A stretch of 64,000 nucleotides of DNA from sequence record PZ402301.1, one strand, 5' to 3'. Position 1 is the stretch's first letter, and each line of letters begins with the position of its first letter. Shown in pieces: positions 10,318 to 51,563 of this stretch. Position numbers and translations under genes: made by a program. Source of the stretch: a phage. The notes below the pieces were generated by a model. The model made no database searches and was not told where the DNA came from. It saw only the letters and a list, made by a program, of their open reading frames with translations.

Positions 10318-10332
10318 TCTTTGACGATTTAA

Positions 10333-10361
10333 GGGACCTTCGGGTCCCTTTAGTTGTTTTT
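10333..10361 (+). terminator. rho-independent terminator after gene 23: GGGACC-UUCG-GGUCCC followed by U-rich tract
   Basis: 6-bp GC stem closing a C(UUCG)G tetraloop 16 nt after gene 23 stop, followed by TTTAGTTGTTTTT. Confidence 0.7.
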
Positions 10362-10365
10362 ATGG

Positions 10366-10373
10366 TATAAATA
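10366..10373 (+). promoter_or_regulatory. late promoter box TATAAATA upstream of gene 24
   Basis: Exact TATAAATA 28 nt upstream of gene 24 ATG. Confidence 0.5.
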
Positions 10374-10400
10374 AATCATATAAACCAAAAGGAAAGCGCA

Positions 10401-11684
10401 ATGGCTAAAATCAACGAACTTCTGCGCGAATCAACCACAACGAATAGCAACTCAATCGGTCGCCCAAATCTCGTTGCTTTGACTCGCGCTACCACTAAAT
10501 TAATATATTCTGACATTGTAGCAACGCAAAGAACTAATCAACCTGTTGCTGCTTTTTATGGTATCAAATACCTTAACCCAGATAACGAATTTACATTTAA
10601 AACTGGTGCTACTTACGCTGGCGAAGCTGGGTACGTAGACCGAGAACAAATCACAGAATTAACAGAAGAGTCTAAATTAACTCTCAATAAAGGCGATTTA
10701 TTCAAATATAATAATATCGTTTATAAAGTATTAGAAGATACACCATTTGCTACCATTGAAGAAAGTGATTTAGAATTAGCTCTTCAGATTGCAATTGTTC
10801 TTTTAAAGGTTCGTCTATTTTCTGATGCTGCAGTAACAAGCAAATTTGAAAGCTCTGATAGCGAAATTGCGGATGCTAGATTCCAGATTAATAAATGGCA
10901 AACCGCTGTTAAATCTCGTAAACTTAAAACTGGCATCACAGTTGAATTAGCACAAGATTTAGAAGCAAATGGATTCGATGCTCCTAATTTCTTGGAAGAT
11001 TTGCTTGCAACTGAAATGGCGGATGAAATCAATAAAGATATTCTACAGTCTTTGATCACAGTATCAAAACGCTATAAAGTTACAGGAATTACTGATACCG
11101 GATTCATTGATTTGAGTTATGCATCTGCACCTGAAGCTGGTCGTTCATTATACCGAATGGTATGTGAAATGGTTTCGCATATCCAAAAAGAATCAACTTA
11201 TACAGCAACGTTCTGTGTTGCTTCAGCTCGTGCTGCCGCGATTCTTGCTGCATCAGGTTGGTTAAAACATAAACCAGAAGATGATAAATATCTTTCACAA
11301 AATGCCTACGGGTTCTTAGCTAATGGTTTACCGCTTTATTGCGATACCAACAGCCCATTAGATTATGTAATCGTCGGCGTAGTAGAAAATATTGGTGAAA
11401 AAGAAATTGTTGGATCAATTTTCTATGCTCCGTATACAGAAGGTCTTGACTTAGATGACCCTGAACATGTAGGTGCATTTAAAGTTGTAGTCGATCCAGA
11501 AAGTTTGCAGCCATCTATCGGTTTATTGGTTAGATATGCTTTATCTGCAAATCCTTACACTGTAGCAAAAGATGAAAAAGAAGCAAGAATAATTGATGGT
11601 GGAGACATGGATAAAATGGCGGGTCGTTCAGATTTGTCTGTTTTATTAGGTGTTAAGCTACCAAAAATTATCGTTGATGAATAA
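10401..11684 (+). CDS. 24: capsid vertex protein gp24
   Basis: 427 aa as T4 gp24; paralog-like relation to gp23 expected. Confidence 0.92.
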   Translation: MAKINELLRESTTTNSNSIGRPNLVALTRATTKLIYSDIVATQRTNQPVAAFYGIKYLNPDNEFTFKTGATYAGEAGYVDREQITELTEESKLTLNKGDLFKYNNIVYKVLEDTPFATIEESDLELALQIAIVLLKVRLFSDAAVTSKFESSDSEIADARFQINKWQTAVKSRKLKTGITVELAQDLEANGFDAPNFLEDLLATEMADEINKDILQSLITVSKRYKVTGITDTGFIDLSYASAPEAGRSLYRMVCEMVSHIQKESTYTATFCVASARAAAILAASGWLKHKPEDDKYLSQNAYGFLANGLPLYCDTNSPLDYVIVGVVENIGEKEIVGSIFYAPYTEGLDLDDPEHVGAFKVVVDPESLQPSIGLLVRYALSANPYTVAKDEKEARIIDGGDMDKMAGRSDLSVLLGVKLPKIIVDE

Positions 11685-11690
11685 AACAAA

Positions 11691-11706
11691 GGGACCTTTC
11701 GGTCCC
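11691..11706. terminator. bidirectional terminator hairpin between convergent genes 24 and rnlB
   Basis: GGGACC-TTTC-GGTCCC lies exactly between the two stop codons (11682-11684 and 11714-11716), with A-run 5' and T-run 3'; reads as GAAA tetraloop on the minus transcript. Confidence 0.65.
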
Positions 11707-11713
11707 TTTTTAT

Positions 11714-12718
11714 TTAACTCACTAATTCAATCCAAGCCGGACGAAGTACATCTTGTACCATTTTAACTAATTCCTTTTTAATCAAAGAAGGATTATCCGC
11801 TTGAGTTAAAGTAATACCTTCACGAGAAGTTTCTTCCAAAATATCTTGAACAGTTAGTCCCATCACCTTTCCAAAATCTTTTGGACCAATTTCGCCAATT
11901 TTAGAAATAACGTTATTTACCCGGTTCAGTGTAACGTAGCAAGCTAAAATTCCCAGCAATTTATTATCAGCTTCTGACAGCTCAACTTTAGCTTTAATAG
12001 GCTTATCAGACTTTTTCTTTTCACTAAATTTAGAGTTCTTGCATTTAATAGCTACACGATTTCCGTTAGGCATCCAAGAAGGATAACAAGGTTTCAATAC
12101 ATAACCTTCAGCGGTAAATACTTCACCTTTTGCTTCGGCATTCCAAACGCATTTATTTGCATCAACTAATCCAGCGTGATCTACCGTAAAATTATAATCC
12201 TGGACGACAGAATCTAAATCATTTGGCAATTTAATAAGTTCTTCAAATTTACCACGACCCAAAAGTGGAGCCATTTTAAATTTGAATGTATTACAGAATG
12301 ATTCCATCATATAATCATCGACATAAGTCACATCACCACTTTCGGTAGTAACAATAATGTCAAATACATAAAAATCTTTATCGCCATAATCGACATTCTT
12401 CTGAATACCAGGCCCAGCGAATTCACCGAAGACTTGATAAGATACAACTGCTGAAGTTTCCATAATATCTTGCACTGCTTTAATGGAATCAGCATAATTC
12501 TTTAAAATAATTTCATACCCAAAGAAATCTTCAGCAGGAAGAATCGGTCCAGTACGTTTAGCACAAGTTGCTTTATCGCGCTCAATAATTAATGAGAAAT
12601 TTGTACCATGAATCTTTTCACGAGCTACCCATTCGCCGCCAGTCAATCCTAAACTATAAAGTTTTTCAATGAATTTAGAATTGTAATGATTTTCAAGACT
12701 GCTATACTTTTTAAACAT
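11714..12718 (-). CDS. rnlB: RNA ligase 2 (Rnl2)
   Basis: 334 aa as T4 Rnl2 (gene 24.1); [17 protein letters not shown]-terminus recalled. Confidence 0.9.
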
Positions 12719-15117: not shown

Positions 15118-15130
15118 AATATTTCCTCAG

Positions 15131-15138
15131 TATAAATA
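15131..15138 (+). promoter_or_regulatory. late promoter box TATAAATA upstream of uvsW
   Basis: Exact TATAAATA 30 nt upstream of uvsW ATG. Confidence 0.5.
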
Positions 15139-15167
15139 TAGATATATTTATTACATGGTATTTAGAC

Positions 15168-25531: not shown

Positions 25532-25585
25532 TCCTCATGTTATGTCAGTAAGATTATTATAACACAATACGAGGGACTTGTAAAC
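25532..25585 (-). promoter_or_regulatory. early promoter cassette (copy A of 54-bp repeat): GTTTAC -35, 18-nt spacer, TATAAT -10, leader with GAGGA
   Basis: Minus strand reads GTTTACaagtccctcgtattgtgtTATAATaatcttactgacataacatGAGGaacacaaaATG; 51/54 identical to 41303-41356. Confidence 0.6.
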
Positions 25586-27642
25586 TACATCTTGAACTTT
25601 TTAGACATTCCGTTGATGTTAACCAAAGAAGCTAAGATTTGAGAAACTTCGTTTTCCTCTTCTTTTGATTCTTCTACAAGGAATTGATTAAACCCAGCCA
25701 TTGGACGAACTTCACCAGTTTCCATCAGATGATCGCCATCATATACCGATTCTTCTAATTGTTCAGAAGGAGGAACGATTGTACCTTCGATTAAATACTT
25801 GTTATAAGCAGTTTCTTTCATCATGTACGTGCTCACTTTATTAATCTTCAGCAAAATTCCACGTGGTAAAATAACTTCAGCTTCTGACGGAAATCCTGAT
25901 AAATGACCCGGAACGATAACTTTGATTCGCTCAGCTCCTTTAATTACCATACCTACGCTAGTTTCAGCATCTTCATTCGCATAAGCAGAATGACTGCCCA
26001 TATGCATCAAATCTTCTGCGTCAACTGAACCTTCTCCTTCACCAGAAAATACTGCACTGGAATCATCTAGAGCCATATAGTTTTTACCATACTCACCGAA
26101 GATATTTGGTTTAAGCGATGTGGATACGAAGTTCTTAAAATAGAACATTTTATTTTCAATATTATGACGTAAAGTTTTAAAGGTAACTTCTTGGCCACGG
26201 TAAAGCGTAGTTCCTGGAGGAAGAACTGATCCTTTGGCAAAAGCAGAATCCATCGTCTCGATGTGTTTAATAGCTCGTTCCATATATTCTTCACGAGTAG
26301 AATCTGGTTTACCCAAGAGGAACGAGTTCATTTCAACATATGAATCTGCACAATAATCTTCAATTACATCAGACTCAGCTTGAGTTAATCCTTTTGGAGT
26401 TACTTCAGTACTTGCATATTCATACGCTTGAGAAGCAGACTCATTAATCAATTTATAAACGCCATTCATGACAAATTGAACAATAGCTACCTTTTCATCT
26501 GGTGTGGCTTTAGAACCTTTAACTAAATCATTGACAATTTTCTTAATAACATCAAAGCTATTAGAAATATTAATGTCAGCAAGATCGCTTAAAATTTTAT
26601 CAGTTTTATAATCAAAAAATTCTTTATTCTTTAAATATTCTTGAGAACCTTGATATGTTATATCGCTCTGTAATTTAATAGATGGATCACGTAAACGCGC
26701 ATGGGCCAATGCAATATGATTTCGGAAGCTTTCTAGTTCATAATCACTAGATTTAAAACGAGAAGCACTCCTCATACCACCGATAGCTCCTTTGCTGAAG
26801 TTTGAACCAACCTGAATAACGCCGGAGTTCATTGGTCCTTCTGCTTTATATACCGGAACTTTAGATTCAAACTCTTGATATTTCTTAGCAGCGAAGCTAT
26901 CACCCTGAAGTGAAGCATCGACAGTAGAGTATTGAGCTTGTGCTGCTAATCGACGACTAATTTTAGTTTTCTGAATAACAGCTTGATCCGTACGCTTATC
27001 ATTTTCTAGAGCAATAGAAGCGGCAACAGCAACAGCTTTAGGAACAGCATTGCCTGTTTTAACATCTACATAAACATCACCAACCTTTGATTCAACCTTT
27101 GTGAATAACTCAGTTGAAATAGGAGGTACACCTGGAATGTCTTCTAAATTGGCATTTTTACGGTAAACCATAATATATGCATACTTTTTATCATAGTCCC
27201 AGATTTCCTTTAAAAGAACATATCGACCTGCTCCTTTAGTACGTACTAAACGGTCAGCAATAACTTGCATTTGACGAGTTGCACCGTTTGTTTTACTCTT
27301 TAGTACGCGGAATAGGCATGCGTCAATTTTATACTGTTTCATTGTTTGAAGAGCAGTATCAAAAACCGCATTAATGACACCAATTGGATTTCCACCCAAG
27401 TTTTTAAGTTTAACTAATGATAGTTTCTCATTAACACCTATCATTACAATATGCATCATTTTATCGCCTGGCTTAACGTTTTTATTTGTATCACCGCCAG
27501 AGGTGTATGTACAAAATCTAAATCCAGGAAGCACACTTTCTTCACCGGCTTGAATAGCAAAAATTTGAGGGATTTTATGCTTAGGATTTAAATTAACAAC
27601 CGGCGCCGAAGCGCCGTCAAATAATTCTGTAATAAGTTCCAT
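25585..27642 (-). CDS. Alt-like ADP-ribosyltransferase paralog (685 aa)
   Basis: Starts MELITELFD like Alt; N-terminal half closely similar to the adjacent 698-aa gene; C-terminal half has ART-like motifs (LYRGQ, FVSTSL, EAEVILPRG) but diverges. Confidence 0.85.
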   Translation of the reverse strand: MELITELFDGASAPVVNLNPKHKIPQIFAIQAGEESVLPGFRFCTYTSGGDTNKNVKPGDKMMHIVMIGVNEKLSLVKLKNLGGNPIGVINAVFDTALQTMKQYKIDACLFRVLKSKTNGATRQMQVIADRLVRTKGAGRYVLLKEIWDYDKKYAYIMVYRKNANLEDIPGVPPISTELFTKVESKVGDVYVDVKTGNAVPKAVAVAASIALENDKRTDQAVIQKTKISRRLAAQAQYSTVDASLQGDSFAAKKYQEFESKVPVYKAEGPMNSGVIQVGSNFSKGAIGGMRSASRFKSSDYELESFRNHIALAHARLRDPSIKLQSDITYQGSQEYLKNKEFFDYKTDKILSDLADINISNSFDVIKKIVNDLVKGSKATPDEKVAIVQFVMNGVYKLINESASQAYEYASTEVTPKGLTQAESDVIEDYCADSYVEMNSFLLGKPDSTREEYMERAIKHIETMDSAFAKGSVLPPGTTLYRGQEVTFKTLRHNIENKMFYFKNFVSTSLKPNIFGEYGKNYMALDDSSAVFSGEGEGSVDAEDLMHMGSHSAYANEDAETSVGMVIKGAERIKVIVPGHLSGFPSEAEVILPRGILLKINKVSTYMMKETAYNKYLIEGTIVPPSEQLEESVYDGDHLMETGEVRPMAGFNQFLVEESKEEENEVSQILASLVNINGMSKKFKM

Positions 27643-27645
27643 GAT

Positions 27646-29742
27646 TTATCCTTGAACGAACTTGTAAGGCATGTTTGTAATATCTATGCAAGACGCAATA
27701 ATTCCAAGAGATGATTCTACTTTCTGTTTAACATTTGATGAAACAAATGATGCAAAGTCAACTCTGTCTTCTATTTCAATATCACCTGTCATTGCAACTA
27801 CTTCACCAGTTTCCATTAGACGGTCACCGTCATAAATGACTGATTCGGTGAGTTCTTCCGTGGTCATAACTTCAGCTTGAATGAGTTTTGTATTATTAGA
27901 TGTTGTTCCGTCATTATTAGAAGCATCAGTTATTTTATTAACTTTGACCATCAATCCGCGTGGTAGAATAACTTCAGCTTCTGTTGCTATTCCGAGATTT
28001 CCTGGATATACAACATTAACTTTATGAGCTCCATCAATTGCCCATCCTATTTGAACTTTAACGTATTCAGGATTTTCTTTATACGCTCTTATTTCGTTTG
28101 GATTAATAGTTATTCCTTCTTCATTTTTATCAACTGTCAATTCATTACGAGCTTCTGGTTCTAAAAGACCAATACCAGCATGTGTAATTCCAAAACGTCC
28201 AAAAATGATAGGAGTTAAAGAAGTAGATACAAAATTTCTGAAATAGAACACTTTATTTTTAACTAGCGCTTCGTATATAGGAGCAGTCATACTTTGAGCA
28301 CGATAAACTGTAATGCCTTCTGGTATACGGTCACCGTTTTCAAAAGCTGAATCTAAGTTATTTATAGCAGATTCAATTTCTTTTTCACTCATTACATCAT
28401 ATCGTTCTGGATTGTAGCGTCCTAAAAGAAGATTATTGATGTCAGTATATCCTGAACCACAATATTCTCTAATGCCGCGCTTTTGCGATGGAGTATATTT
28501 AGAACCATCACGTGCAATGGTAATATCAATCATTGGACCTGCACCAATTCCAGAAAAGCTATAAATCATTCGTTTGAGGAATTTAGTTTTTGCTGCGTTC
28601 CAGGAATTTTTAGTTATTTCTTCCCAGACTTCATCTGGCTGTCCTTTACGGGTTTTATTATGTTTATCAAGCCAAGTATCTTTATATTCTTCAAAGAATT
28701 TATTAATAGCTGCTGCATACTTCTCTAAACATTTTATTGAAGTAGTTGGTTCATTTTTGATCGCATTAAGAATTACATCTTTAATTTTTTCAGAAACTTC
28801 ATTAACCTCACTTTTTGAAAAGAATTTATAGTCATAGTGAAGTTCATCTGCAGTCCCTTCAGCAATAATTTTTGCTGCCTTAGTTTTAGAAGCTAATGAA
28901 TTAATTCCAAGCTTCATTTCTTCTGCTTCGGGAATTAAAGGAGCTGTAGCAGGTTTATTGAAATTAGCTGCGGTAGATTCATATTTCTGGAATAATTCAC
29001 TTTCAAATCTAGAAGATTCCAATGACTGACTTTGTGCAATTGCTCTACGGGAAATTTTAACTTTAACGATTACAGCTTGGTCAGTGCGTTTATCATTTTC
29101 TTGTGCAATAGATGCTGCAATTGCCTCATTTTTAGTTACTTGAGCTCCAGTATCTTTATTGATATAAACATCGCCGACTTTCGATTCAACTTTAGTAAAG
29201 AGCTCGGTACTAATTTCCGGAACTCCTGGAATGTCTTCTAGTGATACATTTTTGCGATGTATAAGAATATATGCGTACTTTTTATCGTAATCCCAGAGTT
29301 CCTTAAGAAGGACGTATCTGCCACCTGAACGACTGCGGATAAGTCTATCAGCAATAAGTTGAATTTGTCGAGCTTGGCCAGCAGTTTTAGACTTAAGAAT
29401 ACGGAGCATACAGGCATCAATTTTATACTGACGCATCGTCTGCATTGCAACAGTAAAAACTGAATTGATATAATTAATTGGGCTTGGACCGAGACCTTTT
29501 AATTTAGCAATTGAACCTTTAGCAGTTAATGTAAAAGGAACAATATGCATCATTTTATCGCCCATCTTTAAATCGCGATTAGTATCACCTCCAGATGTAT
29601 AGGTACATAAACGAAAGCCTGGTTGTTCAATTGCGTCATCAACATGAACTGAAAAAATTTGCGGTATTTTCTTCTTTGGATTTAAGTTTGTAATCGGAAG
29701 AGTAGTATCTTCGTCAAATAATTCTGTAATGAGTTCCATCAT
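27646..29742 (-). CDS. alt: Alt ADP-ribosyltransferase, packaged internal head protein
   Basis: 698 aa; N-terminus MMELITELFDEDTTLPITNL matches my recall of T4 Alt (true start may be the second ATG at 29739); ART motifs VYRAQ, FVSTSL, EAEVILPRG. Confidence 0.88.
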   Translation of the reverse strand: MMELITELFDEDTTLPITNLNPKKKIPQIFSVHVDDAIEQPGFRLCTYTSGGDTNRDLKMGDKMMHIVPFTLTAKGSIAKLKGLGPSPINYINSVFTVAMQTMRQYKIDACMLRILKSKTAGQARQIQLIADRLIRSRSGGRYVLLKELWDYDKKYAYILIHRKNVSLEDIPGVPEISTELFTKVESKVGDVYINKDTGAQVTKNEAIAASIAQENDKRTDQAVIVKVKISRRAIAQSQSLESSRFESELFQKYESTAANFNKPATAPLIPEAEEMKLGINSLASKTKAAKIIAEGTADELHYDYKFFSKSEVNEVSEKIKDVILNAIKNEPTTSIKCLEKYAAAINKFFEEYKDTWLDKHNKTRKGQPDEVWEEITKNSWNAAKTKFLKRMIYSFSGIGAGPMIDITIARDGSKYTPSQKRGIREYCGSGYTDINNLLLGRYNPERYDVMSEKEIESAINNLDSAFENGDRIPEGITVYRAQSMTAPIYEALVKNKVFYFRNFVSTSLTPIIFGRFGITHAGIGLLEPEARNELTVDKNEEGITINPNEIRAYKENPEYVKVQIGWAIDGAHKVNVVYPGNLGIATEAEVILPRGLMVKVNKITDASNNDGTTSNNTKLIQAEVMTTEELTESVIYDGDRLMETGEVVAMTGDIEIEDRVDFASFVSSNVKQKVESSLGIIASCIDITNMPYKFVQG

Positions 29743-37217: not shown

Positions 37218-37450
37218 AGTACGCCATACACCCTTTGTGCTTCAACTAATCCATCAAAATCCAGTTTAAGATGTGTTATTTGGTCACCATCACCTGGATT
37301 CACAATTACTAATACTGAACGAGGAGTTTCGGTAATAACACGAACCGATGTTTCTGGAAATCGTTCAGAAACCTTATTTACCAATTCCTGAGCAAATAGT
37401 TTAACTTTTTCTTGGAATTCTTTAACAGTAATTGGTTTTTCACTTAGCAT
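37214..37450 (-). CDS. cd.2: hypothetical protein (positional cd.2)
   Basis: 78-aa ORF. Confidence 0.55.
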   Translation of the reverse strand: MLSEKPITVKEFQEKVKLFAQELVNKVSERFPETSVRVITETPRSVLVIVNPGDGDQITHLKLDFDGLVEAQRVYGVL

Positions 37451-37971
37451 GTTGATCCTAGCTCCTTACTTTCAACGTTTTTAACTAATTTGACAGAAAC
37501 TAATTCAGCATCTCGGGTAATCATTACCGGACCTTCTTCATACTCTTCAAGATATTCTAGAGCTTTCTTTTTAGCTTCTTCCTTCGTATCAGTTTGAGCA
37601 TAGATATAGAACATACAACCAGTAATACCTACTACTTTCCACTTAATTTCTTTATCAGCTTTAATTTCAAATTTACTTGTAGAATCATCTTTTTGAACTT
37701 CTTCGAAAAAAGAATATTCTAACATATAAGCAATTGAAAATAACGGGCTAACTTTATAGGATTCACCCATTACATCAACAGCTTTATACCAACAATCATC
37801 AATTTCACGTTTAATGCTAATAACATTTTTCGCAGGATCTATTTTTACTTTAAATGAATTTTCCCCAATAAACTGGGCAATTCGTTTATTAGCCCCGCAA
37901 GTTTCATTAAAAATATCTTTATATCCAGCTTTAAAGCGATAAACCTTATCTTCTTCAAACCATTCGCTCAT
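37444..37971 (-). CDS. cd.3: hypothetical protein (positional cd.3)
   Basis: 175-aa ORF. Confidence 0.6.
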   Translation of the reverse strand: MSEWFEEDKVYRFKAGYKDIFNETCGANKRIAQFIGENSFKVKIDPAKNVISIKREIDDCWYKAVDVMGESYKVSPLFSIAYMLEYSFFEEVQKDDSTSKFEIKADKEIKWKVVGITGCMFYIYAQTDTKEEAKKKALEYLEEYEEGPVMITRDAELVSVKLVKNVESKELGSTC

Positions 37972-38702: not shown

Positions 38703-39927
<1,225 letters not shown>

Positions 39928-41302: not shown

Positions 41303-41356
41303 TCCTCATGTTATGTCAGTAAGACTACTATAACACAACACGAGGGACTTGTAAAC
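41303..41356 (-). promoter_or_regulatory. early promoter cassette (copy B of 54-bp repeat) upstream of alc
   Basis: 51/54 nt identical to 25532-25585; GTTTAC -35 at 41351-41356, -10 TATAGT, leader GAGGA. Confidence 0.55.
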
Positions 41357-41359
41357 AGC

Positions 41360-42947
<1,588 letters not shown>

Positions 42948-42955
42948 AATAAAAT

Positions 42956-42969
42956 GGGCCTTGCGGCCC
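42956..42969 (-). other. GGGCC-GCAA-GGCCC hairpin between nrdB stop and denA start
   Basis: GNRA-loop hairpin on the minus transcript sitting between a GGAG and the denA ATG; may modulate denA translation. Confidence 0.45.
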
Positions 42970-42974
42970 ACTCC

Positions 42975-44144
42975 TTAAAAATATTTTTTAAAACTCATCA
43001 TAACTTTATCATCAACATCATTATCAATCTGTGCTACAAGGTAAGATGACAGTTCTACTTCTTGCGGTGCAGATTGAACATTATCAGAATTAAGATATTC
43101 ACGAATCCAAGGATACGGATGTTTAACCGGAGCATCAGTAATTGGGCATGGAAGACCGCACTGTTTCATACGAGATACAGTTAAGTAATCAATAAAGCTC
43201 CACATGCTATTTGTATTTAATCCAGGAACATCGCCATCTTTAAATAAATGAACTGCCCAATCTTTTTCTTGGCGGTTAACTTCCATGAAAATATCAACTG
43301 CTTCTTGTTCACATTCTTGAGCAATTTTAACCCATTCATCACCATCAGTGCCAAGTTGAAGTTGACGAATAATATATTGGGTGCCTTTAAGGTGAAGCTG
43401 CTCATCACGTGCAATGAACTTCATAATCTTGGCATTACCTTCCATGATTTCCATGTTCTTATGGAAGTTAAAGGTACATGCGAAAGATACATAAAAACGA
43501 ATAGCTTCCAGTGCATTGATTACATGAAGGCAAAGATAAAGAGATTTCATTAGTGCTTGTTTAGTACATTCAACAACTTTGCCTAACTCTTCTTTGCGAA
43601 ATCCTTCTGATAAAATTCCTTCATAATCTTCAACCGCATTCTGATATTCACGAGTCTTAACTAGAACATCATCGTAATAGCGACCAATGGACTCGGCACG
43701 TTTCATAATAGCTTTATCTAATACAATCTCATCAAATACCTTTGACGGATCAGTATAAAGATTTCGCATGATATGGGTATATGAACGGCTGTGAATAGTT
43801 TCACTAAAAGTCCATGTAGCAACCCATGTATCAAGACTTGGGTCTGAAATTAACGACATAAGTACAGCAGACGGTGCACGACCCTGAATGCTATCTAGAA
43901 GTGATTGATACTTCAAGTTATTAGTAAAAATATCTTGCTGATACTGAGGAAGCTTGTTAAATTGCGCAGCATCCATCATTAAGTTTACTTCTTCAGGACG
44001 CCAGAAAAATGATAATTGCTTTTCGGTTAAATCTTCAAAAACTTTATGGCGTTGAATATCATAACGCGCAATACCAAGACCTGAACCGAAGAACATAGGT
44101 TCTTTTAAAACATCAACTGGATTTGTATTAAAAACTGTGCTCAT
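42975..44144 (-). CDS. nrdB: ribonucleotide reductase small subunit NrdB (uninterrupted)
   Basis: 389-aa continuous ORF; N-terminus ...LKEPMFFG...RYD...QLSFFWRPEEV as in class Ia R2; no intron interruption. Confidence 0.93.
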   Translation of the reverse strand: MSTVFNTNPVDVLKEPMFFGSGLGIARYDIQRHKVFEDLTEKQLSFFWRPEEVNLMMDAAQFNKLPQYQQDIFTNNLKYQSLLDSIQGRAPSAVLMSLISDPSLDTWVATWTFSETIHSRSYTHIMRNLYTDPSKVFDEIVLDKAIMKRAESIGRYYDDVLVKTREYQNAVEDYEGILSEGFRKEELGKVVECTKQALMKSLYLCLHVINALEAIRFYVSFACTFNFHKNMEIMEGNAKIMKFIARDEQLHLKGTQYIIRQLQLGTDGDEWVKIAQECEQEAVDIFMEVNRQEKDWAVHLFKDGDVPGLNTNSMWSFIDYLTVSRMKQCGLPCPITDAPVKHPYPWIREYLNSDNVQSAPQEVELSSYLVAQIDNDVDDKVMMSFKKYF

Positions 44145-44195
44145 AAATTTTCCGCTTAGTTAATAGATAGTGACTCGTCCGTGAGTCAAATTATA

Positions 44196-46460
44196 TCATA
44201 ATTTACAGGATGAACAATCTTCAGCTTTTGGAGTTTCTATTTCATAATCATCAGTACCAGAACCGTCACGGGTATTATGATAATAGAAATTTTTTCCGCC
44301 AAAATACCAAAAATACAAAAGGTCATCAATCATTACAGACATTGGAACCTTTCCTTTTGGAAAAATCTGCGGGTCATAATATGTATTCGCTGAAGCTGAT
44401 TGACATACCCATTTCAGCATAATAGCTACCTGCGTAAGATAAGGTTTATTTCCTTTCTTAGCTAATTTCCATGTATAATCATATAGGTCTATGTTATGCT
44501 CAATATTGGGCACGACTTGATTAAAGGAACCCTCTTTTGATTCTTTAACAGAGACTGGTCCACGTGGAGGCTCGATACCGTTTGTACTGTTAGAAACTTG
44601 GGAAGATGACTCACATGGCATAAGTGCTGATAATGTGCTATTACGGATGCCAAAGAGCTTAAGGTCTTCCCGCAGCGACGACCAGTCACAAACGTATTTT
44701 GGAGCTGCGATTTGGTCAATCTTTTTATTGTACCAGTCGATAGGTAATTCGCCTCGAGACCAACGAGTGTCTGAATAATATTCGCAAGGTCCTTTTTCTT
44801 TTGCGAGCTTAATGGATGCTTTAATGAGTCCATACTGTAATCTCTCAAATAGTTCATGTGTTAAATCGTTAGCATCTTCATAAGAAGCAAAATTACTTGC
44901 CAGCCAAGCTGCATAGTTAGTAACACCGACGCCAAGGTTTCGACGCTTTTTAGCTTTTTCTGCTTCAGGAACTGGATATCCTTGGTAATCCAAAAGATTA
45001 TCAAGAGCGCGTACTTGAACTTCTGCTAATTCATTAATTTTATCTTGGTCTTGCCAATCGAAGTTATCCAACACAAATGCAGATAACGTACACAATCCAA
45101 TTTCAGCATCAGGACCATTCACGTCATTTGTTGGAATAGCAATTTCACAACACAAGTTGCTCTGACGAATAGGTGCCTTTTCACGAATAAATGGAGTATA
45201 GTTATTCGTATTATCAATGAACTGTACATAAATCCTTGCTGTTCCTGATCGTTCAGTCATGAGCAATTCAAACAGTTCACGGGCTTTAATACGCTTTTTG
45301 CGAATATTAGGGTCTTTTTCTGCGGCTTCGTACAATTCACGGAAACGGTCTTGGTCTTTAAAATAAGAATAATAAAGCTCGCCACCCATTTCGTGTGGAC
45401 TGAACAAAGTAATGTAGTCGTTCTTTCCAAAACGTTCCATCATCAAATCATTCAGTTGAACGCCATAATCCATATGACGGATACGGTTTTCTTCTACACC
45501 TTTGTTATTTTTCAAAACGAGAAGATTTTCAACTTCCAAATGCCAAATAGGATAATAAGCAGTAGCAGCGCCGCCACGAATTCCACCCTGTGAACATGAT
45601 TTAACAGCAGTCTGAAAATGTTTCCAAAAAGGAATAACACCAGTATGACGCACTTCACCTGTGCCAATCTTAGAACCTTCGGCACGAATCATACCAACGT
45701 TAATACCAATTCCAGCGCGTTTGGAGATATATTCAACAATTGAAGCGGAAGCTTTGTTAATAGACTTCAGCGAATCACCTGCTTCAATAACAACACATGA
45801 ACTAAACTGTCGAGTTGGAGTACGGCAACCAGCCATAATAGGAGTTGGTAATGAAATCTGTCGAGTAGATACTGCTTCATAAAAACGAATAACATGTTTT
45901 AATCTATCAACAGGTTCATCTTGATGCAATGCCATTCCAATAGTCATAAATGCAAACTGCGGAGTTTCATAAATTTGACCAGTGGTTTTATCTTTAACGA
46001 GATATTTTTCTTTTAATTGCATCGCCCCGGAATAAGTAAATTCCATATCCCGCTCGTGCTTAATTTTTGATTCTAAAAATGTAATTTCTTCTGCAGAATA
46101 TTTTGACAACAATTCAGGGTCGTATTTACCTTCATTTACACAGTAAGAAATATGGTCAATAAATGAACGTGGTTCATACTGACCGTAAACATGCTTACGA
46201 AGAGCAAACATTAAACAGCGTGCAGCTACGTATTGATAATCAGGCTCTTCAACTGAAATAGAATTCGCAGCAGCCTTAATTACAATAGTCTGAATGTCAT
46301 CAGTTGTCATTCCATCACGGAGATATGATTTAATATTTTCATATAATTCATAAGGATCTACAGATGTTCCTTCAGCTGCCCAAGATAAAACTTTAATAAT
46401 TTTTTGTGGGTCAAAGCTCTGAGAAACACCACTACTTTTGATAACATTAATTAATTGCAT
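44196..46460 (-). CDS. nrdA: ribonucleotide reductase large subunit NrdA
   Basis: 754 aa as T4 NrdA; ATP-cone at N-terminus and C-terminal CxxC tail. Confidence 0.95.
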   Translation of the reverse strand: MQLINVIKSSGVSQSFDPQKIIKVLSWAAEGTSVDPYELYENIKSYLRDGMTTDDIQTIVIKAAANSISVEEPDYQYVAARCLMFALRKHVYGQYEPRSFIDHISYCVNEGKYDPELLSKYSAEEITFLESKIKHERDMEFTYSGAMQLKEKYLVKDKTTGQIYETPQFAFMTIGMALHQDEPVDRLKHVIRFYEAVSTRQISLPTPIMAGCRTPTRQFSSCVVIEAGDSLKSINKASASIVEYISKRAGIGINVGMIRAEGSKIGTGEVRHTGVIPFWKHFQTAVKSCSQGGIRGGAATAYYPIWHLEVENLLVLKNNKGVEENRIRHMDYGVQLNDLMMERFGKNDYITLFSPHEMGGELYYSYFKDQDRFRELYEAAEKDPNIRKKRIKARELFELLMTERSGTARIYVQFIDNTNNYTPFIREKAPIRQSNLCCEIAIPTNDVNGPDAEIGLCTLSAFVLDNFDWQDQDKINELAEVQVRALDNLLDYQGYPVPEAEKAKKRRNLGVGVTNYAAWLASNFASYEDANDLTHELFERLQYGLIKASIKLAKEKGPCEYYSDTRWSRGELPIDWYNKKIDQIAAPKYVCDWSSLREDLKLFGIRNSTLSALMPCESSSQVSNSTNGIEPPRGPVSVKESKEGSFNQVVPNIEHNIDLYDYTWKLAKKGNKPYLTQVAIMLKWVCQSASANTYYDPQIFPKGKVPMSVMIDDLLYFWYFGGKNFYYHNTRDGSGTDDYEIETPKAEDCSSCKL

Positions 46461-46777
46461 AAGTCCTCAACTTGAAAATCGTCTTTAAACAATCGGTTAA
46501 CTATATGAGCTATTATATCACCATGACACGGCTTTGGTTTACATGTGCATCCTAGCCTCATTCCACGTAAAGGCTCTAAATGTGCTTTAGTTATTTCTCC
46601 GGATTTAATTCGACGTATAAAATCTTTTTTGAATAATTCAATGGCAGCCTCCCGGCTGCCAGCATCTTTACCGACGTAATTTCCCCAAAATGTACCACGG
46701 TGAATATTAACATCAAAGTCGGATTTATATTTATTCACTACCCGGCATAGACGGCCCGCGTGGTAATAATTCGTCAT
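46451..46777 (-). CDS. nrdA.1: hypothetical protein (positional nrdA.1)
   Basis: 108-aa ORF with ATG; overlaps nrdA start by 10 nt. Confidence 0.6.
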
Positions 46778-47006
46778 ATTGTTTTTCCGTTAAAACAGTA
46801 ATATCATAATAACAATCAGAAGAAGTTTTAACTGTAGAAATTTTATTATCAAAATACTCACGAGTCATTTTATGAGTATAATATTTTTTGCCATAAATGA
46901 TAATAGGCTGTTCTGGTCCTGGAACTTCTAACTCGCTTGGATTAGGAAGTGTAAAAAGAACGACACCAGAAGTATCCTTAAATCGTAAAATCATATATCC
47001 TCTCAA
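46731..47006 (-). CDS. nrdA.2: hypothetical protein (positional nrdA.2)
   Basis: 91-aa ORF overlapping nrdA.1 by 47 nt in another frame. Confidence 0.55.
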
Positions 47007-47017
47007 TTAAATTAAAA

Positions 47018-47878
47018 TTACACCGCCATCTTTCCTTTCAAGACACCGTGGGACTGATAATCTTTGAGAACGAAATCCCGTGCTGTCATATATTCAGTTA
47101 ACCAATACATTTGAGTTTCAGTATCGCATTGACTGAATCCATTAGGCCAATTAATACTGAGTTTGCATAGATCCATAGGAGTTCTATTTAATATCTCTTT
47201 GCATTGCTCAATATGGTTAGAATAAATGTGTGTATTACCACCCGAGAATACCAAATCGCCCGGAACTAGTTCACACATGTCAGCAACAATATGCAAAAGA
47301 GCAGCATAACTCGCGATGTTAAATGGAAGACCGAGGAAAACATCTACCGAACGTTGATACCATTGGAGGTCAAGGTATCCGTTACGCACATTAAACTGAT
47401 AGAACATATGACAAGGAGGTAATGCCATCTGCTTGAGTTCAGCTGGATTCCATGCCGACACAATTTGACGCCTATCGTTGGGAAATGTTTTAATACGATT
47501 AACAACTTCTACAATTTGATCTACACCACCAAAATCACGCCACTGTTTTCCGTAAATTGGACCAAGTTCACCGCTATGATAACCTAAGTCTTTGGCCTGG
47601 TTTTCGTAGTTTTCATCCCAAATTGTTTTTCCTGCAATTAAAGATCCATGAGTACGTTGACGTAAATCATTTACGTTAGTACTTCCTGATAAGAACCACA
47701 ATAACTCAGAAATACATGCATTCCAGGCGAGCTTCTTAGTCGTTACTGCAGGAAAACCTTTAGTTAAATCCCAGCGTAATTTAGTACCGAACAAAGCAAT
47801 TGTTCCTGTGCCTGTTCGGTCATCAGTTTCATAGCCATTTTCAAAAATGTCTTTAATTAAATCTTGGTATTGTTTCAT
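47018..47878 (-). CDS. td: thymidylate synthase (uninterrupted)
   Basis: 286-aa continuous ORF with ThyA active-site region ...ALPPCHMFYQF...; no intron. Confidence 0.95.
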   Translation of the reverse strand: MKQYQDLIKDIFENGYETDDRTGTGTIALFGTKLRWDLTKGFPAVTTKKLAWNACISELLWFLSGSTNVNDLRQRTHGSLIAGKTIWDENYENQAKDLGYHSGELGPIYGKQWRDFGGVDQIVEVVNRIKTFPNDRRQIVSAWNPAELKQMALPPCHMFYQFNVRNGYLDLQWYQRSVDVFLGLPFNIASYAALLHIVADMCELVPGDLVFSGGNTHIYSNHIEQCKEILNRTPMDLCKLSINWPNGFSQCDTETQMYWLTEYMTARDFVLKDYQSHGVLKGKMAV

Positions 47879-47922
47879 TTAGTACCTTATATAAATTATA
47901 ATACATTTTATGAAGCTAATAA

Positions 47923-48282
47923 TCAATACGGTTTAGCATCAAATTTTCTTTCGATTTCAGGAGTGAAATATAATTCTTTACCACGTTTGGAAAAACGACC
48001 AATAATATGATAATTATTCTCATCAAACGTGATATTACCAATATCCATAGCTTTCAACCAAATATCGATATTTCTATCTAGTTTTATATCAAAATTCCAA
48101 TACGGAGAACTATTACCAAAAATACTACAAGCGGATTCAGTGAAACAACTGCTATAAATCTTGCCTTTAGGAACTACTAATTGATAGACGCCTTTAATAA
48201 ACTGAGGACCCTGCCATTTTGGTTGTTTCGCGTCTTTTTCTAATAGAATAGGGTAATAATTAAAATTCATATTTTCCGCCAC
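47923..48282 (-). CDS. hypothetical protein inserted between frd and td
   Basis: 119-aa ORF with no recognisable motif, filling a 412-bp gap between frd stop and td start. Confidence 0.55.
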   Translation of the reverse strand: MAENMNFNYYPILLEKDAKQPKWQGPQFIKGVYQLVVPKGKIYSSCFTESACSIFGNSSPYWNFDIKLDRNIDIWLKAMDIGNITFDENNYHIIGRFSKRGKELYFTPEIERKFDAKPY

Positions 48283-48290
48283 GTGTTATT

Positions 48291-49117
<827 letters not shown>

Positions 49118-49125
49118 ATTATCTC

Positions 49126-49461
49126 CTAATATAAAGGATCGGGAACATATCCACTGGCTTTAATCATTTTGATTAACGTTAGCAGTCCTTTATTAACTGC
49201 TTGTGAGATTTCATTAAAAACTTCATCACTAAAAAGTTCTAACACTCCCTTCTGAACTTTTAATTTACAACCAACAATTTCGTCATCGCCTATAGTAAAT
49301 TCGTTTCCGCCAATTCCACCGAAAAACTTAATTACACCAGTTAACTGTGTTCCACGAGAATATGGGTCGTGTGATAAAGTAATATGAGTCACCCCAGGTA
49401 CAGTTTTAAATTGGCAGCGAATGTTTACTTGTGAAATTCCAGTTACGTGAATGTCAGACAT
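49126..49461 (-). CDS. frd.2: hypothetical protein (positional frd.2)
   Basis: 111-aa ORF. Confidence 0.55.
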   Translation of the reverse strand: MSDIHVTGISQVNIRCQFKTVPGVTHITLSHDPYSRGTQLTGVIKFFGGIGGNEFTIGDDEIVGCKLKVQKGVLELFSDEVFNEISQAVNKGLLTLIKMIKASGYVPDPLY

Positions 49462-51464: not shown

Positions 51465-51547
51465 TTTTATTTCCTTTTTAATTTAATTAACAGTTGGTGC
51501 TATGACGATGTATGACCTCATAGCTGGTCAGTGAGATAATTATAATC
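51465..51547 (-). promoter_or_regulatory. gene 32 leader: autoregulatory translational operator (structured region plus unstructured A/U-rich tract)
   Basis: Minus-strand leader ends ...UUAAAUUAAAAAGGAAAUAAAAAUG, preceded by GC-containing region CUAUGAGGUCAUACAUCGUCAUAGCAC capable of hairpin/pseudoknot, matching the known architecture of the T4 gene 32 operator. Confidence 0.55.
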
Positions 51548-51555
51548 TATTTATA
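51548..51555 (-). promoter_or_regulatory. late promoter box TATAAATA (minus strand) upstream of gene 32
   Basis: Plus-strand TATTTATA at 51548-51555. Confidence 0.45.
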
Positions 51556-51563
51556 ATAAGCAA

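Follow-up and report, generated by a model that had tools for sequence, protein, structure and literature searches.

The 64,000-nucleotide stretch of phage DNA analysed here (PZ402301.1; hereafter, the window) derives from a Tequatrovirus (T4-like phage), and its nucleotide-metabolism block is in the unoccupied T2-type form, with intron-free td and nrdB genes that are not accompanied by homing endonucleases. The feature is real and already known: variable td and nrdB introns and seg and mob genes among T-even phages have been documented since the late 1980s, and T2 serves as the standard recipient, free of introns and poor in endonucleases (PMC2790892, PMC2988022, PMC2993671 Table 5). We consider it highly probable that this is an unoccupied T2-type block of contiguous, working genes that has kept its target sites; the genome would plausibly act as a recipient of T4-type elements.

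Organization of the td-nrd block

The block runs in the order frd, small ORF, td, nrdA.2, nrdA.1, nrdA, nrdB and denA (Table 1). As the first-pass annotation had claimed, td and nrdB are each continuous, at 286 and 389 aa, according to the ORF listing, Pfam and collinearity with the spliced T4 genes, and the spacing between nrdA and nrdB is exactly 51 nt, according to the ORF listing and direct reading. Thymidylat_synt was matched full-length by the TD protein (1-266 of 266), Ribonuc_red_sm by NrdB, and Ribonuc_red_lgC/lgN/ATP-cone by NrdA. The elements of an unoccupied T2-type module, namely contiguous td, contiguous nrdB, a short spacer and a small ORF between frd and td, were all found when the window was compared with T2 (AP018813). 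The scan of the region for promoters and terminators yielded counts at chance level (24 vs. 21.5 expected and 2 vs. 3.0 expected, respectively).

Table 1. Features of the td-nrd block, with positions in the window.
Feature	Position	Strand	Description	Basis
frd	48291..48872	-	dihydrofolate reductase	
115-aa ORF	47923..48270	-	between frd and td; phrog_1928, a family of unknown function	
td	47018..47878	-	thymidylate synthase, 286 aa, 861 nt	ORF listing, Pfam
CAACG	47352..47356	-	I-TevI cleavage motif, -27 to -23 from the insertion site	read directly
Empty td intron insertion site	47329..47330	-	td nt 549/550	blastn, exon joining
nrdA.2	46731..47006	-	DUF5496	Pfam
nrdA.1	46451..46777	-	DUF4326	Pfam
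nrdA	44196..46460	-	754 aa, uninterrupted	ORF listing, Pfam
nrdA-nrdB intergenic gap	44145..44195	-	51 bp	
nrdB	42975..44144	-	389 aa, one ORF	ORF listing, Pfam
MobE nick counterpart	44019..44023	-	AAAAG, T2-type; T2 nrdB nt 122-126	alignment, direct reading
Hypervariable nrdB patch	43545..43660	-	~35 codons, just upstream of the intron site	sliding identity, protein alignment
Empty nrdB intron insertion site	43477..43478	-	nrdB nt 667/668	blastn, exon joining
denA	42537..42971	-	endonuclease II	Pfam GIY-YIG, phrog_1111

The corresponding part of T2 (133.3-139.7 kb) likewise contains denA, nrdB, the 51-bp gap, nrdA, nrdA.1, nrdA.2, td (861 nt), the 115-aa ORF and frd, without introns and without mobE. 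The nearest sequenced relative, Shigella phage Shfl2 (NC_015457), aligns collinearly and without a break over 42500-48300, at 98.3% identity, and shares the window's alleles of td and nrdB as well as its empty sites; given the ~2% divergence, the window represents a different isolate. T4 (NC_000866) has the orthologous genes in the same order and shares with the window the I-TevI motif and the greater part of each insertion site. In T4, however, unlike in the window, td is interrupted by an intron of ~1017 nt carrying I-TevI and nrdB by one of 598 nt carrying a truncated, defective I-TevIII, and mobE and nrdB.1 lie between nrdA and nrdB (the T4 record agrees with what the first-pass annotation had stated on the introns and the endonuclease gene); segG, segD and segE are found nearby, and there is no ORF between frd and td, so that these two genes overlap (ATGA).

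The 115-aa ORF had been passed over in the first-pass annotation. It has no counterpart in T4 but occurs in T2 and Shfl2 and in 363 phage records; its PHROGs match is to a family of unknown function, with only 3 homologue clusters. As a candidate novel nuclease it was rejected, with no Pfam match and only noise in a sequence search of the PDB (E > 0.2). The AlphaFold (AF2) model was of low confidence (pLDDT 56) and not good enough to support a fold search, and nothing in these predictions and comparisons would mark the ORF as a nuclease. This extra ORF, 0.55 kb upstream, was weighed against the recipient explanation.

Searches for introns and homing endonucleases

Relative to T4, blastn shows clean deletions at three places, corresponding to the td intron, the nrdB intron, and mobE together with nrdB.1, with breakpoints defined from blastn and explicit exon joining. 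The T4 td intron (T4 locus 11548-12564) has no counterpart at the td insertion site, and the window td has the length of the spliced T4 gene; the T4 nrdB intron with its I-TevIII relic would occupy the nrdB insertion site; and 700 bp comprising mobE and nrdB.1 of T4 are missing at 44145-44199. No group I intron was matched in Rfam at gathering thresholds in all 64 kb. The gap between nrdA and nrdB contains no ORF, and hence no HNH or other nuclease gene; its hairpin is weak and not significant (z -1.0), and its sequence is almost identical to that of T2.

The six homing-endonuclease genes that T4 carries in the syntenic region (segD, segE, I-TevIII, mobE, I-TevI and segG) are missing from the window, and the claim that it holds no HNH or further GIY-YIG ORF besides denA was upheld by four types of search (Pfam on the region, Pfam on other ORFs, tblastn, and HMMs in six frames). 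The Pfam scans covered the 9 genes of the region, 60 further ORFs of up to 370 aa (concatenated, in ten blocks) and 10 large ORFs; the two alt paralogues and the tail-fibre genes 34, 35 and 37 were covered by the six-frame searches only. With T4 I-TevI, I-TevIII, MobE and SegG and a relative's 243-aa MobE-like protein as tblastn queries, all matches had E > 0.3. Family HMMs were built for GIY-YIG (from I-TevI, SegD, SegE and SegG) and for HNH (from MobE-type proteins and I-TevIII); when 864 six-frame stop-to-stop segments were searched with these and with phmmer, the best match (E 0.02, 11 bits) was an antisense fragment of gene 24. The T4 I-TevI and I-TevIII queries gave no match below E 0.02 in either tblastn or phmmer, and the only Pfam domains of td and nrdB are Thymidylat_synt and Ribonuc_red_sm; neither gene holds an intron endonuclease ORF. 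The top match of the GIY-YIG HMM among the 864 segments was denA (E 0.67), which scored 27.1 bits (E 5e-6) against Pfam GIY-YIG and E 2e-65 against phrog_1111 ('endonuclease'); denA is the sole GIY-YIG-like protein of the window. As a positive control, the inserts of relatives and T4 MobE scored HNH/NUMOD in Pfam.

Empty and occupied sites among relatives

Queries spanning the junctions were contiguous in 282 of 445 matching phage records for td, in 606 of 716 for nrdB and, with a 171-bp query, in 374 of 496 for nrdA-nrdB, whereas records covering at least 80% of the T4 query numbered 197 for the td intron, 118 for the nrdB intron and 20 for T4-type mobE with nrdB.1; these counts describe a redundant public collection and no population sample. 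Empty sites are the majority, T2-like state among sequenced T4 relatives and hence ordinary, and the unequal distribution of homing-endonuclease genes among close relatives of T4 is textbook knowledge (PMC2993671, Table 5). Close relatives with flanks 95-97% identical carry an HNH + NUMOD endonuclease in the nrdA-nrdB gap or within nrdA, and such sites are therefore invaded in nature. In the intron-plus phage U5, td is T4-like beside the intron and window-like in distal exon 2, a mosaic such as would be expected of a co-conversion tract. A chimeric query joining the 3' end of the T4 intron to the window exon 2, aimed at natural invasions of this td allele, found no full-length match of high identity, although such invasions could be masked by co-conversion replacing the whole of exon 2.

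The td insertion site

I-TevI cuts 23 and 25 nt upstream of its insertion site, C1 and G5 of its motif being critical, and it tolerates sequence change (PMC5009752, PMC2988022). In the window, CAACG has the same spacing to the insertion site as in T4 and agrees with the required 5'-CNNNG-3' (PMC5009752). The surrounding site differs from T4 at -22, -19, -6, -4, +3, +6, +12, +15 and +19 to +21, where -6, -4, +3 and +6 are variable in T2 too, and the changes at -19, +12, +15 and +19-21 are not found in T2; about 7 of positions -27 to +12 differ from T4, three of them without a match in T2. The allele as a whole is divergent, with 86% nucleotide identity to both T4 and T2 in the exon 1 part and 64% in the exon 2 part, whereas between T2 and T4 td the identity is 96%, in exon 2 as well. 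Alignment of the homing sites to T4 thus bears on the first-pass annotation's claim of a natural recipient in two ways: the nrdB site is nearly identical and CAACG is intact, but the td site is mutated, a finding that the annotation itself had counted against its claim. Because of these mutations and the 64% identity of exon 2 to T4, the efficiency of cleavage and repair at td is uncertain; at that identity, compared to 96% for T2, repair homology on the exon 2 side would be poor, and homing into td may be less efficient than into T2.

The td allele might, then, be partly refractory, with inefficient cleavage and/or repair, so that the genome would be intron-free by resistance and not because it is naive. 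The substitutions in the I-TevI binding region that T2 lacks and the low identity of exon 2 fit this explanation, as does the result, which also weighs against the recipient explanation, that no phage in the database has an intron beside a window-type exon 2; homing efficiency is reportedly governed by flanking homology and by optional genes in the flanks (Sandegren and Sjoberg, 2004). We nevertheless regard it as unlikely: the motif keeps its critical C and G at the right spacing, and I-TevI is sequence-tolerant (PMC5009752, PMC2988022); T2 is a recipient despite six substitutions in its td site; U5, with a related divergent td type, did acquire the intron; and if co-conversion took in all 312 nt of exon 2, the signature that the chimeric query looks for would be lost.

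The nrdB insertion site and the MobE target

From -30 to +50 around the nrdB insertion site, the window departs from intron-deleted T4 at just two positions, -2 and -5, and T2 has the -2 change too. Sequence comparison shows the RB3-type I-TevIII homing site to be conserved in the window, including the cleavage positions, which lie 14 and 16 bp upstream (PMC1865063). The NrdB proteins of the window (389 aa), T4 (388 aa) and T2 (392 aa) are collinear, and the exon 2 part of nrdB is 96% identical to T4. In the hypervariable patch, sliding identity falls to 37-57%, vs. 90-100% in the rest of the gene, and there are three unrelated alleles, those of T4, of T2, and of the window and Shfl2, the window allele being 3 codons shorter than that of T2. 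It is quite doubtful that this patch and the divergent td are products of selection against homing-endonuclease attack; if they were, the genome would be a resistant host, not a naive one, and would illustrate how phages of the T4 type remain free of introns.

MobE-dependent nicks have been mapped to T2 nrdB nt 122-126 (PMC2790892). Around the counterpart of these positions, the window equals T2 at 78 of 81 positions, and T4, the uncut donor, differs extensively; T2 and the window are nearly identical in both the gap and the nick region. T2 has served as the experimental recipient for trans-homing of mobE and the nrdB intron, with exclusion of T2 markers (PMC2790892, PMC2988022).

Probable recipient state of the genome

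The empty sites might also go back to a once-invaded ancestor whose introns and endonuclease genes were secondarily and precisely lost, since homing endonucleases are expected to degenerate and be lost under their life-cycle model (PMC5009752) and relatives have degenerate forms (the T4 I-TevIII relic, and td introns covering 26-45% of the T4 intron), but this is very improbable, as blastn, tblastn and six-frame HMM searches found no remnants at the three sites, the exon sequence at the insertion sites is not T4-like, where past homing would leave a U5-like co-conversion tract, and the MobE target region is of the T2 type and not the immune type of T4.

The reading that we favour is that of an unoccupied, T2-type genome open to T4-type elements, and with a T2-like layout and largely preserved target sequences, the description of the genome as a natural recipient is plausible. 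Both td and nrdB are read as single exons and nrdB follows nrdA after 51 bp, as ordinary contiguous genes, and recognition sites are kept in the form of CAACG at the right distance, a near-T4 nrdB insertion site and a T2-type MobE nick position. In mixed infection with a T4-type donor, these sites would probably suffer cuts or nicks, and repair from the donor would lead to gain of the elements and loss of flanking markers, as in T2. The td step would perhaps be less efficient than in T2, because around the insertion site, and downstream of it, this td allele is far more diverged from T4.

The finding has little import beyond correct annotation. Its one practical value is to provide a second td allele without an intron, more diverged than the first, with which to gauge the tolerance of I-TevI and the limits that flanking homology sets on homing.

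Uninterrupted td and nrdB genes and missing T4 endonucleases

The window comes from a T4-like phage genome of the genus Tequatrovirus: the 5.8 kb around td and nrdB match Shigella phage Shfl2 (NC_015457) at 98.3% in a single collinear piece, and ~500 further T4 relatives match the same stretch at 90-98%. The first-pass annotation had described td and nrdB as single open reading frames with only a short gap between nrdA and nrdB, and every number agrees with the ORF list (see table). The genes of the region belong to their expected Pfam families, with nrdA.1 (DUF4326) and nrdA.2 (DUF5496) between td and nrdA, and with denA, the sole GIY-YIG-matching protein (27 bits), after nrdB.

Coordinates of features in the window and of cargo in relatives (loci L004, L005 and L006)
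Feature	Position	Strand	Size	Remark
nrdB	42975-44144	minus	389 aa	ORF list
nrdA	44196-46460		754 aa	ORF list
td	47018-47878		286 aa	ORF list; full-length thymidylate synthase match in Pfam
nrdA-nrdB spacer	44145-44195		51 nt	nrdA stop to nrdB start
Spacer at T4 segD position	10318-10400		83 bp
Spacer at T4 segE position	15118-15167		50 bp
Spacer at T4 segG position	51465-51563		99 bp
frd-td ORF	47923-48270		115 aa
ORFs without T4 counterpart at their place	37444-37971; 39607-39927; 48872-49117; 49126-49461		175; 106; 81; 111 aa
alt-like paralogues	25585-27642; 27646-29742		685; 698 aa	tandem
Intergenic repeat	25532-25585; 41303-41356		54 bp	upstream of alt.-3 and of alc
nrdA-nrdB spacer of ECO07P2 and bov9_1	L005 1681-2472; L004 1654-2385			D12-class Dam methyltransferase or 243-aa HNH + NUMOD1 MobE-like endonuclease
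nrdA of SH-2	L006 2676-3386			nrdA split in two ORFs by an HNH endonuclease gene

Aligned to the window, the T4 reference (NC_000866) was collinear with it apart from clean gaps. The window has no td intron with I-TevI between positions 47330 and 47329 and no 598-nt nrdB intron, which in T4 includes the I-TevIII relic, between 43478 and 43477; the 51-bp spacer stands for the 700 bp that hold mobE and nrdB.1 in T4. Since segG, segD and segE are likewise absent, all six T4 homing-endonuclease genes of the syntenic region are missing from the window. No group I intron is recognisable in the whole window, because an Rfam scan at gathering thresholds was empty.

The earlier claim that denA is the only HNH or GIY-YIG ORF held in four tests. 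Pfam revealed no HNH or second GIY-YIG ORF across nearly all window ORFs; tblastn, queried with the endonucleases of T4 and with the full-length MobE-like protein of a relative, gave only matches with E > 0.3 in the window; and phmmer and small family HMMs run against all 864 six-frame segments gave a best E of 0.02 (11 bits, an antisense fragment), the top GIY-YIG match of the family-HMM search being denA. The relatives' inserts and T4 MobE served as a positive control: Pfam recognises them as HNH/NUMOD, with weak scores.

The four ORFs between 37444 and 49461 without a T4 counterpart at their place fall into PHROGs of unknown function (the last is Pfam DUF7247), and none carries a nuclease signature. 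Elsewhere, the window has two full-length alt-like ADP-ribosyltransferase paralogues, whereas T4 has one alt and the fragments alt.-1 and alt.-2. Read on the minus strand, the intergenic repeat (94% identical) resembles a T4 early promoter, GTTTACA...TATAAT, with a ribosome-binding site after it.

Homing sites in nrdB and td

From -30 to +50 around the nrdB insertion site, the window departs from intron-deleted T4 at positions -2 and -5 only, and the stretch cut by I-TevIII of RB3, 14 and 16 bp upstream of where the intron inserts (PMC1865063), is identical. MobE-dependent nicks map to nt 122-126 of T2 nrdB (PMC2790892); in this region the window is T2-type (3 differences in 81 nt), and T4 is very different. 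Judged by sequence, this genome would be a T2-type target for both MobE and I-TevIII, and probably one for I-TevI too (see below). Close relatives of the window, whose flanks are 95-97% identical, have other cargo in the nrdA-nrdB spacer or in nrdA (see table), so these sites are used in nature. Within nrdB, ~35 codons (~43545-43660, codons ~165-200) form a hypervariable patch in an otherwise 97-100% conserved NrdB, with three unrelated sequences in T4, T2 (3 codons longer) and window/Shfl2.

The recognition sequence of I-TevI measures ~38 bp, and cleavage falls 23 and 25 nt upstream of the point of insertion (PMC2988022); the C and G of the CAACG motif are critical (PMC5009752). This motif is kept in the window at exactly -27 to -23 (47352-47356). 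The window differs from T4 at -22, -19, -6, -4, +3, +6, +12, +15 and +19 to +21, and T2 differs from T4 at -22, -7, -6, -4, +3, +6 and +18. Of the homing sites that the first-pass annotation had proposed to locate by alignment with T4, the td site keeps the CAACG spacing but carries substitutions, and the nrdB site is nearly identical to that of T4. The window td is a divergent allele, 86% identical to T4 before the intron site (exon 1 part) and 64% to both T4 and T2 after it (exon 2 part, 47018-47329), whereas T2 td is 96% identical to T4 in both parts; over the whole gene, the protein is 80% identical to T4 and T2. Around the insertion site, ~36 phage records share this allele at at least 90% identity.

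Homing requires homologous repair on both sides of the break. Weak td homology downstream, in combination with an additional ORF that lies 0.55 kb upstream, could make homing less efficient here. No sequenced phage has the T4 intron joined to a window-type exon 2, but co-conversion could overwrite all 312 nt of that exon and so hide such a junction. In phage U5, which carries the intron, td resembles T4 in the sequence directly flanking the intron (90-94% identity), and the distal exon 2 shares more with the window allele (68%) than with T4 (48%), the pattern that homing into a divergent allele would be expected to leave.

An additional ORF between frd and td

frd and td overlap in T4 and are separated in the window by a 401-bp segment without T4 counterpart, which encodes a 115-aa protein that T2 and Shfl2 share and that occurs in 363 phage records. 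The protein belongs to a PHROG of unknown function, has only three homologue clusters and no relatives in Pfam or PDB, and its predicted fold is of low confidence (pLDDT 56); nothing marks it as a nuclease. Near-repeats of the td start bound the segment (47882-48295): TAAATGAAATAACAC after frd, which leaves a relic Met-Lys-stop mini-ORF, and TAAATGAAACAATAC at the real td start. The arrangement suggests either that a deletion between short repeats produced the overlapping frd/td junction of T4, or that the junction was duplicated when the ORF inserted.

Empty sites among related phages

T2 (AP018813) has an identical layout, including the 51-bp spacer and the small frd-td ORF. Using short queries spanning each empty site, we measured occupancy in phage records; the counts are rough proportions, the collection being redundant. 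The nrdA-nrdB spacer is contiguous in 374 of 496 matching records, the nrdB insertion site in 606 of 716 and the td insertion site in 282 of 445, which shows that the unoccupied state is in the majority. At a coverage of at least 80%, the T4 td intron was found in 197 records, the T4 nrdB intron in 118, and T4-type mobE with nrdB.1 in 20. In several phages, td introns span only 26-45% of the T4 intron, the I-TevI ORF being deleted or missing. Homing-endonuclease genes are unevenly spread even among the closest T4 relatives (15 in T4, 1 in T2, 2 in RB14 and none in RB26), and intron-encoded ones occur in few T-even phages only (PMC2993671, Table 5).

The td and nrd sites are empty, as first observed, and the interpretation of this genome as a natural recipient appears broadly sensible; such empty sites are the ordinary, well-documented T2-like state.
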